Assembly (NCBI GenBank): GCA_951406725.2
Contig: OX597823.1
Location: forward strand, 13,764,001 to 13,828,000
Length of the DNA stretch: 64,000 nucleotides
Origin: Octopus vulgaris
Lineage: Eukaryota
Direction of reading: 5' to 3'
Shown: positions 1,181-60,898 of the stretch, in pieces
How the letters are laid out: each line of letters begins with the position of its first letter
Numbering within the stretch: the stretch's first letter is position 1
Translations under genes and position numbers: made by a program
The notes under the pieces: model-generated
What the model was told of the DNA's origin: nothing
Database searches by the model: none
Seen by the model: only the letters and a program-made list of their open reading frames with translations

Positions 1181-2097
1181 TATATCATGATTTCAACCCG
1201 TTAGATATTATAAAAGCTTGCTGGCATTTTCTAAAATGAAAAAAAAGTATTTCAGTCGTAATTTCACCTCGTTCATTAAATTAGGTTAGCATAAATTAAT
1301 TAATCTAAACAACCGGTAATGGTTCATTAAGTGTAGTAGACAATTAAATCACAACCTATCAGTTTAACATATCAAATACCTCAATAATGTTGGTAATTTA
1401 ACCCTATAAACTCTCAAATAAATTTATTATTGGTTCATAAAGCTTAGCTTCCATCTCTTTTAATCCTGAATGAGTTAATAGCGATACGCCCACGTGACCT
1501 ATTTAAGTTTATTTATCGCTTATCACACCGGGAGCAATAAAAGCTAAATAATTAGTCGTAAATGCTCCATAACCTCCATACATCTATAATAATTATGGGT
1601 TACGTGTCAACATTCTAATCCGTTGTTTATGCACACTAAAAATGTCGCAAACGTACATTCTATAAAATATTACACACGCACACAAACACTCGCACATACA
1701 CACACATACACAGACACATGCTCTCACTCACTTGCACACACACACACACACACACATGTGCCTACTCACACCCGTACATGCACATATGTATAACCTTGCA
1801 TATTATTAGCTATACACATGTACACACACAATGCAGATCAAAACAAACAGAAGTGTACGACCGTTTTAACTAAAAATATAAGGCCTACCTACCAGAGTTT
1901 AGTTCCCTTGGTACATAAACTACAAGTTCCTAGTGTCCCTGCATGTGCTTTTCTCTTCGCTAACATGCTCCATTTCAACTCATAAGAATCATAAGGTCTT
2001 TTCAAAATATGCTACATGTTAACACCGGATATTACATCACATTTATGGATAGTAGCACATTCATACAAACGTATATTTCTACCTCCTTTATCAGCGA

Positions 2098-2491
2098 CTA
2101 GCAGTATCGCCCGGCGTTGCTCGAATTTGTAAGGGAAATAACTATATAAGAATTTTTAGAGATGTAAAGTATAATAGCCATCTCAATATAGCTAACCACA
2201 AAGGGGGGGTGTTACTGTAGCTTTTTACGTTCTGAGATTTAATAATACATTTTTAGAGAGTTACTTCCCTTATATATGCCAAAAATGCATTAAAAATGGG
2301 AAAAATGATGGTAATTTTTTTTTAAATCGTAGACTCATCGTAGACGCGCGCTAATACCCAGAAGGACTCGATATGAATCACGACTATAAGATACCCGGTT
2401 TTGGTTAAACTGCACCGCAAAATGTGGGAGTAGTTAGGAATCTAAATCGTAGGAGACAGACAGCACACATCCTCACTTTTATATATAAAGA
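2098..2491 (-). mobile_element. non-autonomous Helitron
   Basis: Minus strand begins TC and ends CTAG, with a subterminal hairpin and insertion between A and T without TSD; near-identical to 22062, 23775 and 50605. Confidence 0.85.
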
Positions 2492-2832
2492 TATGCAGAA
2501 AGGTTAGTATGAGTAAAAACAAAAATAATAGCGCCTCTGCCGTGCACACCAAATATGTCTCCAGTGGCTTCGGCATCTTTTGAATCTTGATTGAAAAGGA
2601 TGAAAAACAGGGGTCGAAGATGCTCTTCTCTTTACTACTTTTTCTACATTGATATATGTCTCATAAGAGGTAATATTTATTCAAATTTCAAAAAGGGTAA
2701 CTATATGTTTGTTAAAGAATTATAAGAATTATAAATTATAAGCAATATGGCAAAAATATTTTTTGCGTTTATGCAAAGATTGAGAAAAAAAAAAAACTAA
2801 AGAATTTATCTGACAACCCAATGTGTATAAAC

Positions 2833-3250
<418 letters not shown>

Positions 3251-11786: not shown

Positions 11787-11962
11787 ATACAATTCTAACA
11801 TCGCCGCCAGAGGCTTCCAATTCCATCCGAAATTTGAGTGCAAAAGGTCTTGCAGCATTTAAAAAGCTGCCAGTTACTAAATCGCTGTGACCCACACAAA
11901 TAGCCACAATGACTGGATATCTATTTACGTCCTCTATTAGCATTGTATCAGCCATGGGAAAT
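11787..11962 (-). CDS. coding exon of an unidentified host gene (FPMADTMLIEDVNRYPVIVAICVGHSDLVTGSFLNAARPFALKFRMELEASGGDVRIV)
   Basis: Acceptor TTTTCTATTTCTTTCAG, donor GTAAGA, 176 bp, only one open frame, non-repetitive protein-like composition; family not recognised. Confidence 0.7.
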
Positions 11963-32922: not shown

Positions 32923-35190
32923 TTAATAGCACCGCCTGATAGGATTATTCGAATCCTGTTTAAGTGAAGTTTTGTTTATGGTCCATTTAAGTAGTGAGTT
33001 TTTGTTGGGTGAGTTGTATCCAATTATGGGTGGCTTATCTGGTATTCTTTGAAGGAATCTATCCAGATTCCGTTTAAAGTTGATGGCATCCTTTTCCTCT
33101 TTGATCTCTTTCGGGACAATGTTAAATAGGGCAGGGCCTGTTGAGGAAAAGAAATTATGTTGCAGTGTACATGTATGCTGTGATCTTGAATTGGGCAGGG
33201 GACGTATGGCCCGTGGTCCCAGTCTTGGATGAACCTTGAAGCTAATGTTCAGGTCGTTTGGGCAAAGTTGGCGGTATATTCTCCACATTGTACAAATGAT
33301 GTACCGCTCACGGCGACGCTGGAGAGAGTAGAGTTTCAAGGCTTTAAGGCGATCCCAATAATCGAGAGCATCCATGCCTTCAATTCGTTTAGTGAGTGCC
33401 GTCTGGGGTGATTCAATCCTCGAGATGTTTTGTCTTGTATGGGGAGACCACAGTGGGCAGCAGTATTCGAGGTGTGGCCGTACAAAGGAGGAGAAAAGTG
33501 GTATGATGACCCCTTGTTCTCTGGACCGGAAAGTTCTTAAGATCCAGGAACTCATCCTACGAGCTATATCGACCTTCTTGTTGATGTGTGCACTCCAACT
33601 GAGATCGTCATCAACAATTACACCCAGGTCTCTTGTTAGAGGCTGTGAGCGGTTCCCCTGAAGGAAGAGAGTATGGCTGTTTTAGTGAGGAATTTCTTCC
33701 AAAATGCATCAGCTCAAATTTTCCCTCGTTCAGTTGCATTTTGTTTCTGTCTGCCCATTGACTCACAGCATATAGATCAGACTGGAGTTGAGTTCGGTCT
33801 GCTTCTTCATTGACGATTTGCTGGAGCTTAGTGTCATCAGCAAATGTTTTCACTTTGCAGTAATGTACGACACTGGAAAGGTCGTTTATGTAAATTATGA
33901 AGAGTAGCGGACCCAAGACAGTCCCCTGGGGAACACCGATGCCATTTCTTTAGCATCGTGTTGGGGAATGCCGTTATCGTCAACCAATGGCCCAATGGGC
34001 AGACAGTGGTTCTATGCTTATTTGCATAAGAATAGAACACTTTTGGGTTCTGTTTGATGTTTTTGATTACCCACTGTTCCTCCACAGCTCTTTGATTTTC
34101 AATGGAGGTTTTCATGTCGGTCTGCAGATGAAGTTTTTCCAGCTCTAGCCTTTTCATTGTTGTTGAATGTGGATGTTGTGTGTGGGAATATTTTAATTGG
34201 TTGATTTTTTGGTTGAGTCTTTTAATGCGCCTGATGAGTGTTTTTTTTTTCTTTTTAGGGAGCCGGTTTTTGTTTGTGTTAGTAGATTTCGTGGGAGCGT
34301 GTTTAGAGCATGTATGGGTGACAAAGATTTTCAAAGTGCTGCCAAGCGGTCTCAATATGGGTTGAATTGAAAGTAAAAGACCAGTTGATGAAAGACAGAT
34401 CCTTTCTGATTGCTCCCCAGTCCGCTTTGTGGAAGTTTATGTTGTCAAATGAGTGCCATGGAGTGGGATTGGCTGGTGTGGTTTTTATATGTCGGGAATT
34501 AGAATTGCAGAGTACCATGTCGTGGTCTGAGAGGAGAGTTTTATCAAATGAAATACTGTGAACGAAGCTAGAGTTAATGGTCAATACCAGATCCAAGATC
34601 GTTTTATTCTATCTCGTTGGTTCGAGCACTAGCTGAGTCAGGAAGTATTCATCCATTAGATTAAAGAGCAGTTCTGCTGCTGCTCTATCTGATGTAGAGC
34701 ATTTGCCTAACTTCAGAGTATTTGTGGGCCAGTTCACATGAGGGAGGTTAAAATCACCCATCACTAGTATGTTTCCGGAGTGGTACTTCCGAAGGAAGGA
34801 CTTGACTTTGCTAAGGCACTCTTCAAAGCACTTTAGAGGTGCTTGAGGAGGCCTGTAAAGACCAACAATGATTATGTCCTTGGCCTTGCTGAATAGTGAT
34901 ACCGATTCACAGTAGCCATTGGAAAATATGTCCTTGGCATCAAGTGAAAAGGAGTCATGGATAAAGATGGCTGTCCCTCCCTTATTTCGGTCTGTTCGAT
35001 CCGCACGAACAATGGTGAAATCTTTTATTTTCACCTCGGCGTCCATATGAGTGTTGTTCAGGTGAGTCTCAGTAAGGATAAAGAAAGGGAAGCAATGTGC
35101 CGTTTCGGCAAGCCAACTCTCTATATATGGGATCTTCCATTTTGGGGCAATAATTGATGGGTTGATGTCACGTACATTTAACAGGAATGT
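32923..35190 (-). pseudogene. LINE ORF2 (APE endonuclease plus partial reverse transcriptase)
   Basis: LTETHL, RADR..GG, YRPP, GDFNLP, LDLVLT, SDH, GVPQGTVLGPLLF, FADDTK, VRPHLEYC..WSP, YSLQRRRER; frameshifts and a stop. Confidence 0.9.
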
Positions 35191-45919: not shown

Positions 45920-46490
45920 AGGAGGGAAGGACGAGTGAGAAGAGTGAACGATCGTGACTCCGGTTGCTCGCTTTTCGTATGCCATCTTTCGCACCAGTCA
46001 CCCACCTTGCCGCCTCGAAGGGGCGGATTGTGCCGTTTGGATGAAGAGACTCAATAGATCGCAGTGTTGTAGCTGCACTACTAAGCACGTCACTCCGAAG
46101 AGGCACCCGCGTCCTCTTCGTCTCGATCTCTTCGAGCAAGTCGGGGTGGCGATGGGACACGTAGTCGGCCACGCGGACGCCGCCCGGGGCGCGTCCAGTC
46201 GTTCTCTTCACTCGGCTGTGGTAGTAGATAGGGACAGTGGGAATCCCGTTTATCCAGTGGCCTAGCGCGAGGTAAGAAGGACGAATGAGAAGAGGGAACG
46301 ATCGTGCCGCGGCCGCCGCCTCCGTTTGCTCGCTTTTTGTATGCCATCTTTCACGCCAGTCACCCACCTTTCAGTCTCAAAGGGGCGGATCGTGCCGTTG
46401 CACTACTAATCACGTCACTCCGAAGCGGCACGGGGTCCCTTTCGTCTCGATCTCTTCGGGCAATTCGGGGCGGCGGCGGGACACGTAGTC
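45920..46490. repeat. GC/CpG-rich island with a diverged direct duplication (period about 350 bp)
   Basis: GAAGGACGA.TGAGAAGAG.GAACGATCGTG at about 45926 and 46276, followed by colinear blocks. Confidence 0.8.
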
Positions 46491-46909: not shown

Positions 46910-48117
46910 TTCTTTATACGTAATATGGTTTTTCGTAATACAAAATTTTCTATACTATCGTCTATTTTAGCAGGTTGCTATTTATTTTCTGCATAATATT
47001 GTAAACACTAGAATCGTAAGTATTTTTAGAGAAGTGCATAGGATTTGTTCAGAGATAGTTTAATCTATATTTTTAGGTTTCAATTATAAATTCTTTTCAA
47101 AATTGTGTACAATTTGCGCTAACTCTATTTTCAAATGTTTAAAACAGATTCTAGTCTTACAAACAACAAACTCGCACTAGACGTTCATGATATAAATACG
47201 TTAATAAAAATTGCTTCTTATTAATTTTCCCCTTTCAAACAATTATAAATTTAATGATAGATTATTAATGTAATTTCTGAGAAAGGCCTGAATCAAAACT
47301 ATATATTTGTCCTCGGCAGTTGTGGATGAGGGTAATGTCATAGTTTATCATCAGTGTTTTCTGTGGTATTTTTATGGATGTAGTTACTTCTTTTCCTTTA
47401 CGTTCTAGCTTCAAACCACACAGAACTCGATTTTACCTTGTTGTCAGGTCATGATTGGAATCTTCGTTGAACAATACTGATTAAAAAAAGGGGAACAGTT
47501 CTTGCGGAATCAGCAAAATAAATACTAAGAGAATATGATAAGCTATTTAATACAGTTGCAAGGCTTTTCACTTGTACCCATAGTTTATGCTTTTAATCTT
47601 GTCGTACATGATCTGAGAAATTAAATTAATAACTCTGAGTTAACGAAGTAACCTGTATGCGGTCTCTTGACCGGATAGACACAGCAGCCAGATCTTCCTC
47701 AAATCATATCCACCTGCCTGAAAAGAGAAAAGAATACACTGGAACATATAGATTTGAAAGCATATTACCCAACAAAGAAACGGAATGGTCACCGCTCCAA
47801 CGCTTTCAACTGCTCAGTCAGGACTGGTCGGCGGTGAAACATTAGCAACAACAGCAACTTTAGCAGCAGAACAAGCAACAACAAAAGCAACTAATACAAA
47901 TTAATGAAAATCCCCAATTTCTACTATACAACTGTTGTTGGTATTGGTGAGTTTTTTTCGTCCCAGAAGAGCATCAATCGAGTAAACATAAAAGCAAATT
48001 TGTTCCAGACATGTCTACGATTTTTTTAACCATATTTTGAAAGTATCTCGAAAGAAATATCCAAATATTCACAGGTTTTCAATGTTAACGGTAATTACAT
48101 AGAAGTCTAAGATTCGC

Positions 48118-49221
48118 GATCTTGCAATGGTATTTGTAGACTTTTATAAAGCGTTCGATTCTGTAGATAGGTACAAGATGTTTGAAATCCTTAAGCTCTA
48201 TGGGATACCAGACAAAATTATTTCTGCCATCAAGGTCCTCTACACAGATACGTCTTCAACCATCTTAACCCCTGATGGAGAAACATCATCTTTCTCAATC
48301 AAAGCCGGAATACTGCAGGGAGACACACTCGCCCCATTTCTTTTCATCATTGTTGTTGATTATGTGCTACGTATGTCAGTTGATACCATCTCTGGCAAGG
48401 GCTTTGAAATAAAACCAAGAAGAAGTTTCAGACACCCAGCTGAGTACTTGACAGACACTGACTTTGCTGACGACATCGCTCTTATCAGTGATTCTCTCTC
48501 CAATGCCCAGTCTCTTTTACAATCTCTTGAACAATCCTCAAATTGTGTAGGTCTTTACCTCAATGAGGCCAAAACTGAATACATAAACAAGTGCCTGTCC
48601 AACAGTGATTGCATCATCCATACTCTCAACAGTGCGCCTTTAAATATGGTTTCTGATTATAAATATCTTGGGTCATACATATCATCATCTGGAAAATACT
48701 TCCTAACTAGAAAGGGTATGGCCTGGTCAGCCTATAATGACATGCATAAGATCTGGTCATCAAATCTGGGTGGAGACTTCAGGCTTGGGGTATTCAAAGC
48801 CACAGTCGAACCGGTTCTACTGTATGGCTCAGAGGCCTGGACGTTGTCGGAGAGGCTTGGGGGGCGGTTGGGTGGAGCCTGCACTCGCCTCCTTGTGGGA
48901 GCTCAGGGTCTCTCGTGGGGGCGCCATCCGGCCAGGGTGCGGATGTGTAGGAAATTGCCGCCTGTGTCATCTCTTGTGAAAGGTAGGAGAGTCCAGTTTG
49001 CTGGACATTGTTGTAGAGCTGAAAAAGAAGTAATTTCTACTCTTCTCCTCTGGAAGCCATCTACTCGCAATACTAGAGGGCGCACACTCTCCTACCCTGA
49101 TGTAATCTCCAGGGATACAGGCATCCAGCAACAGGACCTCCGTAATGCTATGATGGAGTGTGAAGTCTGGCGTAACATAGTAAATTCCATTGTCTCGACC
49201 ACGGTCGAACAATGATGATGA
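48118..49221 (+). mobile_element. 5'-truncated RTE-type LINE (RT C-terminal ORF 48127-49215) with a 10-bp TSD
   Basis: FVDFYKAFDSV, GILQGDTLAPFLF, FADD, YKYLGS, LLYGSE.W, FAGH; (TGA)n tail; TAAGATTCGC at 48108-48117 and 49222-49231. Confidence 0.93.
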
Positions 49222-49922
49222 TAAGATTCGCTAGTAAAGCTATGATAATGTAGAAACGCATTTGGAGTTGTCTCCCGTTTCATTTTTTTTTTTTTTTTAG
49301 CGTAAATATAAAATAATATTAGTCATGGATGTCTTCCTTTTATTTTTATTTGTTTTTATCAAAGGGCTAAAATTTTTCATGTTAAATATTTCAAGATGTC
49401 TCCATTAAACATGTTAATATATGCTATATACCTGCCTGAACTGCAGAAAGAAATTCTTGTGAAGTATCCAATGGCTTCTGTAATGAATGTGTTAAATATT
49501 ATATGAAGTATGTTTGAACATCAAAAATATTTAGTTTCTGCCCTAAGCCATATTTTCTTTGGGAAGAGACTCAGCGCTTCTCACACCAAATAGATTAAAA
49601 CGAAAGTTGAACTCAGTGAGATTTGAATACATGGCTTATAGGCGCGTAAATACTTACTGCGCTGCATTTTGTTTGATGTTCTTTATAATTTTAAATTCAC
49701 CAGCTTCATAAGAACATAAGTTGCGTAGTATTTCAGCAAAGAGCTGTAAGTGCATTGAATTATTACCTCCCTTACAAAAAAATTAAGAGTTATTTCCCTT
49801 GATATTAATAATTTTCTTGGAATTAATTTTTTTGCTTTGCATGTTCAGCATGTGTGCACCTATGGGGGGGGTGTCTCTTTATGCTTGTATTTGATACACG
49901 TACACGCGCGTACTCTCCTGTA

Positions 49923-59698: not shown

Positions 59699-59934
59699 CT
59701 CTAAAGCAATGGTTCTAGAAAGAAACATTGTGAGATCAGGAGGAGAGAAGCAAATAATACTAGAACGCTAGTGGAGGCGTTGGAGGATTAGACGAGTGTT
59801 TTTTCCTGAGAAATTAACCCACTTAGAAATTGAAACAAAATACTTAAACCATTAAATTTTTTTTTTTTATTCAGTCTTTAGACTTTTCTCATAAGAACTG
59901 GAATGCTTATAGGGGACTAATTAAAATATATATA

Positions 59935-60898
59935 GAACATTGCATTACCAGCGAGCAGACATCCATTGTACGCAGTCTTGTAGGAAATAATCAATCCCGA
60001 CTGGCTGCCAACCCTGAATTATTTGACTTGCATGCACCTTATTACAATGAGGTACTAGCTAAGGCAGGATACAAGGAACGAATTAAATTCATACACCCGA
60101 ATAACACGCACAACATACACACCACACACATGCATGACATACACACAACCGACCTAGACGTAAAAACATCTCACGAACGCATCTACAGAAATTCGACCTC
60201 CACAACACACCACCACAAAAGTAGAATACCCTACCATCCAAATAACATTCATTCTTACTGTAAATCTTCCCATCTAAACAGAAATACGTCCAACAAAATT
60301 TATTCCACTAAACAAGCACAACGCATTAGCATAAATAAACCTAATGCCGAATATAGAAACCACACTGTCCTTTGGTACAACCAGATCCATACTACAAATG
60401 TAACTTCCAGGATCGCCAGACAATTTTTGGCAACCCTTGATAGACGCTTCCCGAAATCTCATAAGTATCATTCGATATTTAATAGACATAACGTAAAGGT
60501 GTCATATGCAGCCTCCTCTAACTTGTGGATATATATGCACAGAATAAATAACGTTAAACTTTGAAAGGCCTTGAAAAGCACCGTCACTGGAAGCTCAAAT
60601 AATGAATTTACATTCAATCCTCGCATGACTGAAAACCAACAACGGTTAATCGCAGAAAATGATTGCCCTAAAACATTCAGAACTAATAATATACCTATAA
60701 CAATGAGCGTACAGAACCTGCACATCAGCAGCATGATGAATCCACAACTAATTATAACTGGAATGGCAAGAGAACCACTACAAAACTCCTGGCCACCAAC
60801 AACTGCCACAAATAGGTGCTCCTGTAGGGATAAATTTAATTGCCCATTGGATAACTTTTGCATGACTCGTAACATCGTCTATAAATGCACTGTGCATT
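59935..60898 (+). pseudogene. Penelope-like element fragment (RT thumb/linker up to the start of GIY-YIG)
   Basis: APYYNEVLAKAGY..LWYN..NVTSRIARQFL..FPKSHKYHSIFNRHNVKVSY..CSCRDKFNCPLDNFCMTRNIVYKCTV; ends at (TA)n. Confidence 0.85.

Follow-up and report, generated by a model that had tools for sequence, protein, structure and literature searches.

Clustered A-to-G Changes in Copies of an Octopus RTE-Like LINE Very Probably Derive from ADAR-Edited RNA Copied into Germline DNA

Introduction

The closest described systems are retroviruses, where A-to-G hypermutation of the ADAR type has been described in Rous-associated virus, avian leukosis virus, HTLV-2, and STLV-3 (PMC12925331). The copy of an RTE-like LINE presented here resembles these cases in that roughly one adenine in two within a delimited region has become G on the RNA strand, with fixation, in our reading, by reverse transcription. 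However, the retroviral cases are exogenous and were seen in cells or culture, whereas the octopus case concerns a non-LTR element in the germline, is recurrent, and includes one copy that is found across 2 species labels.

Another type of deaminase footprint is known from the APOBEC "DNA-edited" LTR retroelements of vertebrates, identified in a screen that filtered for G-to-A changes and used 19 invertebrates as a negative control (PMC4866542). These fossils are likewise clustered, strand-biased footprints in retroelement copies, but they consist of G-to-A changes that a cytidine deaminase introduced into the cDNA of vertebrate LTR elements, whereas the changes here are A to G, would have been made on RNA, and occur in an invertebrate LINE. 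For human LINE-1, the restriction by ADAR1 was reported to be editing-independent, and no edits were reported in more than 2.5 kb of L1 RNA (PMC5224506). In both systems ADAR would meet a LINE ribonucleoprotein, the difference being that here the edited RNA was apparently integrated.

Young repeats form dsRNA, inside one transcript or through the pairing of sense with antisense RNA, and their editing is not confined to neural tissue (PMC9068888, PMC9989829), and the editing of cephalopod repeats has been proposed to be a defense (PMC9068888). As far as these texts go, repeat editing in cephalopods and other animals is described at the RNA level, whereas the present case is seen in DNA. Clusters of A-to-G changes have also been described in RNA-derived traces, together with a G-to-A trace error (PMC2873906). 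A full-text search that reached few subscription papers returned no description of non-LTR copies with ADAR edits that had become fixed in a genome, the precedents it gave being retroviral and APOBEC cases. What is new here is a young RTE-like family without a fold-back of its own, a polymorphic and dated insertion, a rate, and a spared 3' end.

Results and Discussion

A Young RTE-Like LINE Copy With a Block of A-to-G Changes

The analyzed stretch, here called the window, consists of 64,000 nucleotides of Octopus vulgaris DNA. The LINE copy and its parts were located as follows.

48118..49221, + strand: 5'-truncated copy of an RTE-like non-LTR retrotransposon, young (95% identity to 29 copies; RVT_1)
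48108..48117, + strand: 5' target-site duplication (TSD), 10 nt, of which the last 4 nt fit the LINE too (microhomology)
48118..48767, + strand: 5' portion of the LINE copy, without edits (none among 187 invariant A)
48768..48960, + strand: block of A-to-G hypermutation (G at 40 of the 68 family adenines)
48961..49221, + strand: 3' portion of the LINE copy, without edits (none among 65 invariant A)
49188..49214, + strand: predicted 3'-terminal stem-loop, 11 bp (predicted fold)
49213..49221, + strand: (TGA)n tail, the first TGA being the stop codon of the frame
49222..49231, + strand: 3' target-site duplication, 10 nt (from the sequence)

The copy represents the 3' 1.1 kb of an element of about 3 kb and aligns to positions 1906-3014 of a 3021-nt stretch in the long copy L136. 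The long copies L136 (L136:1879-5028) and L138 (L138:396-3344) contained frames of 1050 and 983 codons from stop to stop, respectively, with an Exo_endo_phos domain followed by RVT_1. In the window copy, a frame of 370 codons (48103-49215) holds the block; RVT_1, the Pfam reverse transcriptase (RT) core, covers residues 8-190 of this frame, and the block lies downstream in residues 222-286. Since the first TGA of the tail is the stop codon, the LINE has no 3' UTR.

The Atlas neighbors of the LINE protein were clusters with endonuclease and RT, one of which was named craniofacial development protein 2-like, a label that we take to be typical of RTE proteins. A (TGA)n tail and TSDs of 10 to 12 nt were present in the window copy, L124, and L128. 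Members of the RTE clade are described as having a single frame of about 1000 amino acids with an APE endonuclease and an RT, a length of about 3 kb, a microsatellite tail, and TSDs of 8 to 20 nt (PMC5850137, PMC6007223). The window family is alike in its single APE and RT frame, its length of about 3 kb, its microsatellite tail, and its TSDs, and by its frame layout, tail, and TSDs it fits an RTE-like family. RTE-2_OV, an expressed octopus RTE, differs in that it has a 3' UTR of about 600 nt and a C2H2 finger (PMC9115989), whereas the frame of the window family ends in the tail, and judging from sequence the window family is likely a different one. It may still be active.

The features of target-primed retrotransposition were all found: a 5' truncation, an intact 3' end, a TSD, and an empty allele elsewhere. 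The duplication of 10 nt and the tail at 49213-49221 were both present, as the initial annotation had stated. In a contig of run X2, which is DNA of another individual, 48107 is followed by 49222 and 10 letters at the joint fit either side, as expected of the empty allele; contigs of run X1 contain both insertion junctions. The insertion is therefore recent and polymorphic. The window contained 2 candidate exons on the opposite strand:

47653..47717, - strand: candidate exon of a host gene (splice-like ends, open frame, without a Pfam match)
11791-11962, - strand: second candidate exon, longer (clean splice-like ends)

The longer candidate exon had no match in Pfam, PDB, or Atlas. If these are exons, the LINE would sit antisense inside an intron of a minus-strand host gene.

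Differences were tallied against 29 copies fetched from the octopus's own genome, in a search (2.8 Gb, 227 contigs) in which 40 copies were scored among 1746 candidates. The reference copies were 0.3% to 1.3% off the majority base and contained no clusters. Against them, the window copy had 40 A-to-G changes, with the first at 48768 and the last at 48960, a span of 193 letters. These are exactly the limits proposed earlier from the sequence alone, and the underlying counts (14 A and 52 G in 48841-48960; 22 A and 10 G in 48661-48720) were exact as well. Sites with A in the family read G at 40 of 68 positions inside the block versus 0 of 262 outside (Fisher p=1.7e-33), and there was no T-to-C change at the 43 T sites of the block. 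A single other change inside the block, G to A at 48949, was noted. Outside the block, where the copy is 99% identical to the 29 other copies, 10 of 912 positions differed. In total, the differences other than A to G amounted to 11 over 1.1 kb; they were of mixed type, and neither A-to-C nor A-to-T changes were among them. The expected picture of nearly pure A-to-G mismatches confined to the block was thus what the alignment gave. The family consensus at the block was A-rich, not G-rich, and mixed mismatch types were also excluded. The changes affected 35 codons, 25 non-synonymously and 10 synonymously, without creating a stop, in line with the intact frame that had been expected under A-to-G change.

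The direction of change in the window copy is A to G, not the sense-strand G to A that identifies APOBEC activity. We also considered an APOBEC-type origin with G as the ancestral state, but A is what the family (1870 motif matches) and the open frames carry, and this origin was therefore rejected.

Neighbor Preference at the Changed Sites

The 5' neighbors in the window block were scored on the pre-edit sequence. The edited fraction was 9/12 after T, 20/27 after A, 5/14 after C, and 6/15 after G, or 29/39 after T or A versus 11/29 after C or G (p=0.003). Pooled over the 6 copies with clusters (see below), 43 of 68 adenines were edited after T, 72 of 123 after A, 23 of 89 after C, and 22 of 87 after G (chi-square p=9e-10; T or A versus C or G, p=2e-11), and the bias persisted when the window copy was left out (p=3e-9). 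No effect of the 3' neighbor was seen, with 39 of 79 adenines edited before G versus 38% to 45% before the others (p=0.54). The preference of ADAR for the 5' neighbor is given as U>A>C>G, or in older work on ADAR2 as U~A>C=G, and the preference for a 3' G as a weak feature (PMC3113232).

It had been noted before that 10 of 11 adenines in 48841-48950 follow G or C. The count is correct (6 after G, 4 after C, and 1 after T), but 2 of the G neighbors had been A before they too were edited, and the A at 48949 arose from G and is not a survivor. The 5' bias itself was present, but the stress on G alone proved too narrow, C being equally low.

Similar Blocks in Other Copies of the Family

Similar blocks, for which the initial annotation had suggested a scan, were found in further LINE copies, 5 in number, all with A-to-G changes on the sense strand and the same 5' bias. 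The set examined comprised 111 distinct copies (132 loci with a 3' hit). The number of A-to-G changes at invariant sites was 53 in L033, 38 in the window copy, 25 in L125, 20 in L124, 17 in L039, and 9 in L128, which is the weakest of the 6 copies kept. Their densities were 9 to 24 per 100 nt, compared with at most 5 A-to-G and at most 3 T-to-C changes per 100 nt in the other 105 copies.

Edited copies were sought mainly via A-to-G queries within the last 480 nt. L033 and L039 were found with the block as query, and L124, L125, and L128 with motifs demanding G at favored sites, so that 6 in 111 is not a rate. In the motif-based estimate, 2 of 1870 matches carried both required G, and edited copies make up roughly 0.1% to 0.3% of the family, or about 1 to 3 per 1000 insertions. 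No cluster was seen in 30 unbiased loci.

Four of the 6 clustered copies were on the + and 2 on the - assembly strand, and in all 6 the A-to-G changes were on the LINE sense strand. The polarity described for the window copy thus held, both within its block and across the set. Three T-to-C control motifs gave 0 hits, and 4 A-to-G motifs gave 5 true non-self hits, the strand control alone reaching about p=0.06; the first T-to-C motif required disfavored sites and was a weak control. No clustered T-to-C changes were present within the 6 edited copies.

The 6 copies carried different haplotypes. Their edited sites overlapped and correlated (window versus L033, p=0.013; window versus L039, p=0.015), yet the site sets differed, and the blocks therefore represent separate events. 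By their haplotypes, the 5 further copies belong to other sublineages and are independent of the window copy.

Four copies were not kept as clustered and were counted among the "unedited" 105. L131 had 4 A-to-G changes in a mixed spectrum, and L127, L129, and L130 had 4 to 5 per 100 nt on a shared haplotype. The latter 3 have A-to-G variants in common, at family positions 48937, 49029, 49063, 49069, and 49144-49145, the last being an adjacent pair, and may form a small sublineage whose source was lightly edited.

Presence of the Blocks in Independent DNA

The block of L033, which is the same as L061, was found together with its unique flank in 2 other runs. In X2, from organism A, the contig covers 1169-1723 with 2 differences and retains 38 of 38 edited positions; in X3, from organism B, which has another species label, it covers 1169-1733 with 14 differences and retains 38 of 39. 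Because block and flank lie in single contigs of 2 other studies, this is a germline event and no assembly artifact, and as read from these contigs it predates the split between the 2 species labels. Run X1 covers L061 only up to position 1567 and so is without part of the block found in X2 and X3; X1 was not counted as independent support. X5 contained neither the L061 flank nor the block. It was also noted that L061:1502, beside the first edited site, is G in organism B but A, after C, in the family and in the window's genome, where an edit was possibly lost by CpG decay.

At the window block, the contigs of X1, X2, and X3 have a hole at 48812-48925, which the X22 reads do not cover either. 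In the X22 raw reads, sampled at about 3% of the run, 27 partial matches were found, all in AT-rich flank. The word share of 0.65 in X1 fits a block missing from its contigs, 23% of the words touching an edited site. Assemblers remove short low-depth branches inside high-copy repeats. Since contigs drop rare variants and X1 is incomplete at L061 as well, the hole in X1 to X3 is read as a blank. The G in the window block rests on one assembly, and it is for L033/L061 that the contigs establish germline reality.

A separate observation concerns X22 (1.9 Gb of raw reads, same species label), in which no read fell on this family of thousands of copies, in window 47900-49600, which may be due to filtering or to the label.

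Potential Duplex Partners

The element has no long inverted repeat, the longest helix in the 3' 620 nt being 10 bp, and no second piece of the family was found within the window. Fold-back or inverted neighbors were present in 3 of the 111 copies. In L117 (G000:C1 near 38.98 Mb), an inverted segment of 48719-48912 lies directly before the sense copy (L117:1460-2164), and the predicted hairpin spans about 194 bp over these family positions (-353.7 kcal/mol). L117 is itself unedited, and its hairpin overlaps the window block but does not match it. L053 and L087 have inverted neighbors within about 1.1 kb that are capable of pairing. A search for a source or sibling of the window copy, keyed on 2 private variants, returned only the window itself. 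The pairing of sense and antisense repeats is described as another source of dsRNA in some animals (PMC9989829). Since the element is without a long fold-back, we infer an antisense partner from outside it, and for the window block a duplex of about 190 nt. In addition, L041, L105, and L130 contained 5' inversions of the twin-priming type.

Origin of the Hypermutated Blocks

We consider it very probable that sense LINE RNA was hyper-edited by ADAR and then retrotransposed into germline DNA. About 190 nt of this RNA would have formed a duplex with an antisense segment of the LINE family, which might be a fold-back or inverted neighbor carried by the source transcript, or antisense RNA supplied in trans. 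The adenines in the duplex would be deaminated, presumably by ADAR, and target-primed reverse transcription would read inosine as G and so fix the edits in germline DNA. The 3' stem-loop and tail would stay unedited or be covered by RT, such that only RNAs with an intact 3' end are copied, and the RT itself would be provided in trans by an unedited RNA or have been translated before the edits were made. The edited insertion is a rare by-product and not a function of the window locus. Its earlier reading as a possible footprint of anti-retroelement defense gained no support, as the edited RNAs did integrate.

It is unlikely, though the least so of the alternatives, that ADAR edits entered as a patch, either by an RT template switch or by edited RNA or cDNA converting 193 nt of an inserted copy. 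The block does have sharp limits inside the copy, being preceded by 650 and followed by 260 unedited nt, and no duplex partner that matches its limits was found. However, the diagnostic sites in the block and 3' of it form one haplotype, the commonest (27 copies), so that no switch is seen, although this is a weak test. L033 was not the donor, with 5 diagnostic sites that differ from the block, and in L033, L124, and L125 the edits reach the 5' truncation point (4 to 12 nt), as for the copying of a whole RNA. We give a still lower probability to deamination of the DNA in situ after insertion, for example by ADAR acting on the DNA strand of an R-loop under a minus-strand host transcript, which would produce the same polarity here. 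Deamination in situ would have required 40 inosines in DNA to evade repair. Copies lie both ways with respect to genes, so that T-to-C clusters would be expected equally often, but the 3 T-to-C motifs gave no hits, the 105 unedited copies had no more than 3 T-to-C changes per 100 nt, and the 6 edited copies had no such cluster. The TSD adenines were intact at both ends in the window copy, L124, and L128, which is a weak argument against it. In its favor are the candidate minus-strand exon 400 nt away and the finding that in model hybrids ADARs can deaminate the DNA strand where it forms dA-C mismatches (PMC12925331).

That the block in the window copy is an artifact of assembly or polishing is extremely improbable: it has no independent contig or read of its own, but the like block of L033/L061 was found in 2 other DNA studies, its sites show the bias of ADAR and agree with those in L033 (p=0.013) and L039 (p=0.015), and edited pre-mRNA of a minus-strand host gene would yield T-to-C rather than A-to-G changes. 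Hardly any probability, and no more than for an artifact, is left for an error-prone RT that misreads adenines without ADAR, as in diversity-generating retroelements (DGRs) or under dNTP imbalance, which would likewise place changes at A on the sense strand and fix them via retrotransposition. DGR mutagenesis gives A-to-N changes, whereas the window copy had 40 A-to-G, 0 A-to-C, and 0 A-to-T changes, and the 5' neighbor rule and the saturation of about 60% in a bounded block match ADAR acting on a duplex.

The 3' End and the Truncation Points

Under the preferred reading, ADAR editing followed by retrotransposition, the distribution of edits along the copies may carry information on the element. 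In L033, L125, and L128 together, 18 of 24 favorable adenines were edited in 49100-49165 versus 1 of 18 in 49166-49222 (p=6e-6; p=0.0015 without the motif-selected sites), and no motif query was aimed at 49166-49222. The spared segment contains the predicted 11-bp stem-loop and the tail. We regard this sparing, seen in sequence comparison, as a lead. The predicted stem-loop at 49188-49214 is likely a recognition signal for reverse transcription.

The first edit was located 4 to 12 nt from the 5' truncation point in L033, L124, and L125, which would fit reverse transcription that stopped within the duplex. With 25 codons changed in the window copy, its RT protein was likely encoded by a different RNA or translated before editing. 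Nine copies (L037, L043, L046, L065, L067, L071, L075, L076, and L086) start at 48735-48739, within 5 nt of each other, which may reflect a hot spot of truncation or the choice of queries.

Implications for Repeat Evolution

A-to-I editing is normally not inherited, and copies of this kind are, on the preferred reading, a direct genomic record of edited RNA written into germline DNA, here through a non-LTR element. The rate of such events can be measured, and they have recurred over time. On balance, we lean modestly toward the broader view that editing of retrotransposition-competent LINE RNA in the germline is a recurrent source of heritable mutations in this animal, and that the fossils record the workings of the element, namely 3' sparing, truncation starts, and mobilization in trans or editing after translation. 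Genome data could be used to ask whether ADAR edits active LINE RNA in germ cells, where work in human cells found no edits, whether editing lowers or merely accompanies retrotransposition, by setting the edited share of the RNA against that of the DNA, and which segment of the LINE RNA has to stay intact for priming. Patches of G-rich, low-identity sequence in repeats would be single events, so that the dating of repeats is distorted.

Other Features of the Window

Two similar tandem copies form a GC-rich stretch at 45920-46490. Open stretches were also present at 59875-60159 (+) and 33484-33657 (-), which presumably resemble fragments of Penelope-like and LINE-like retroelements, respectively.
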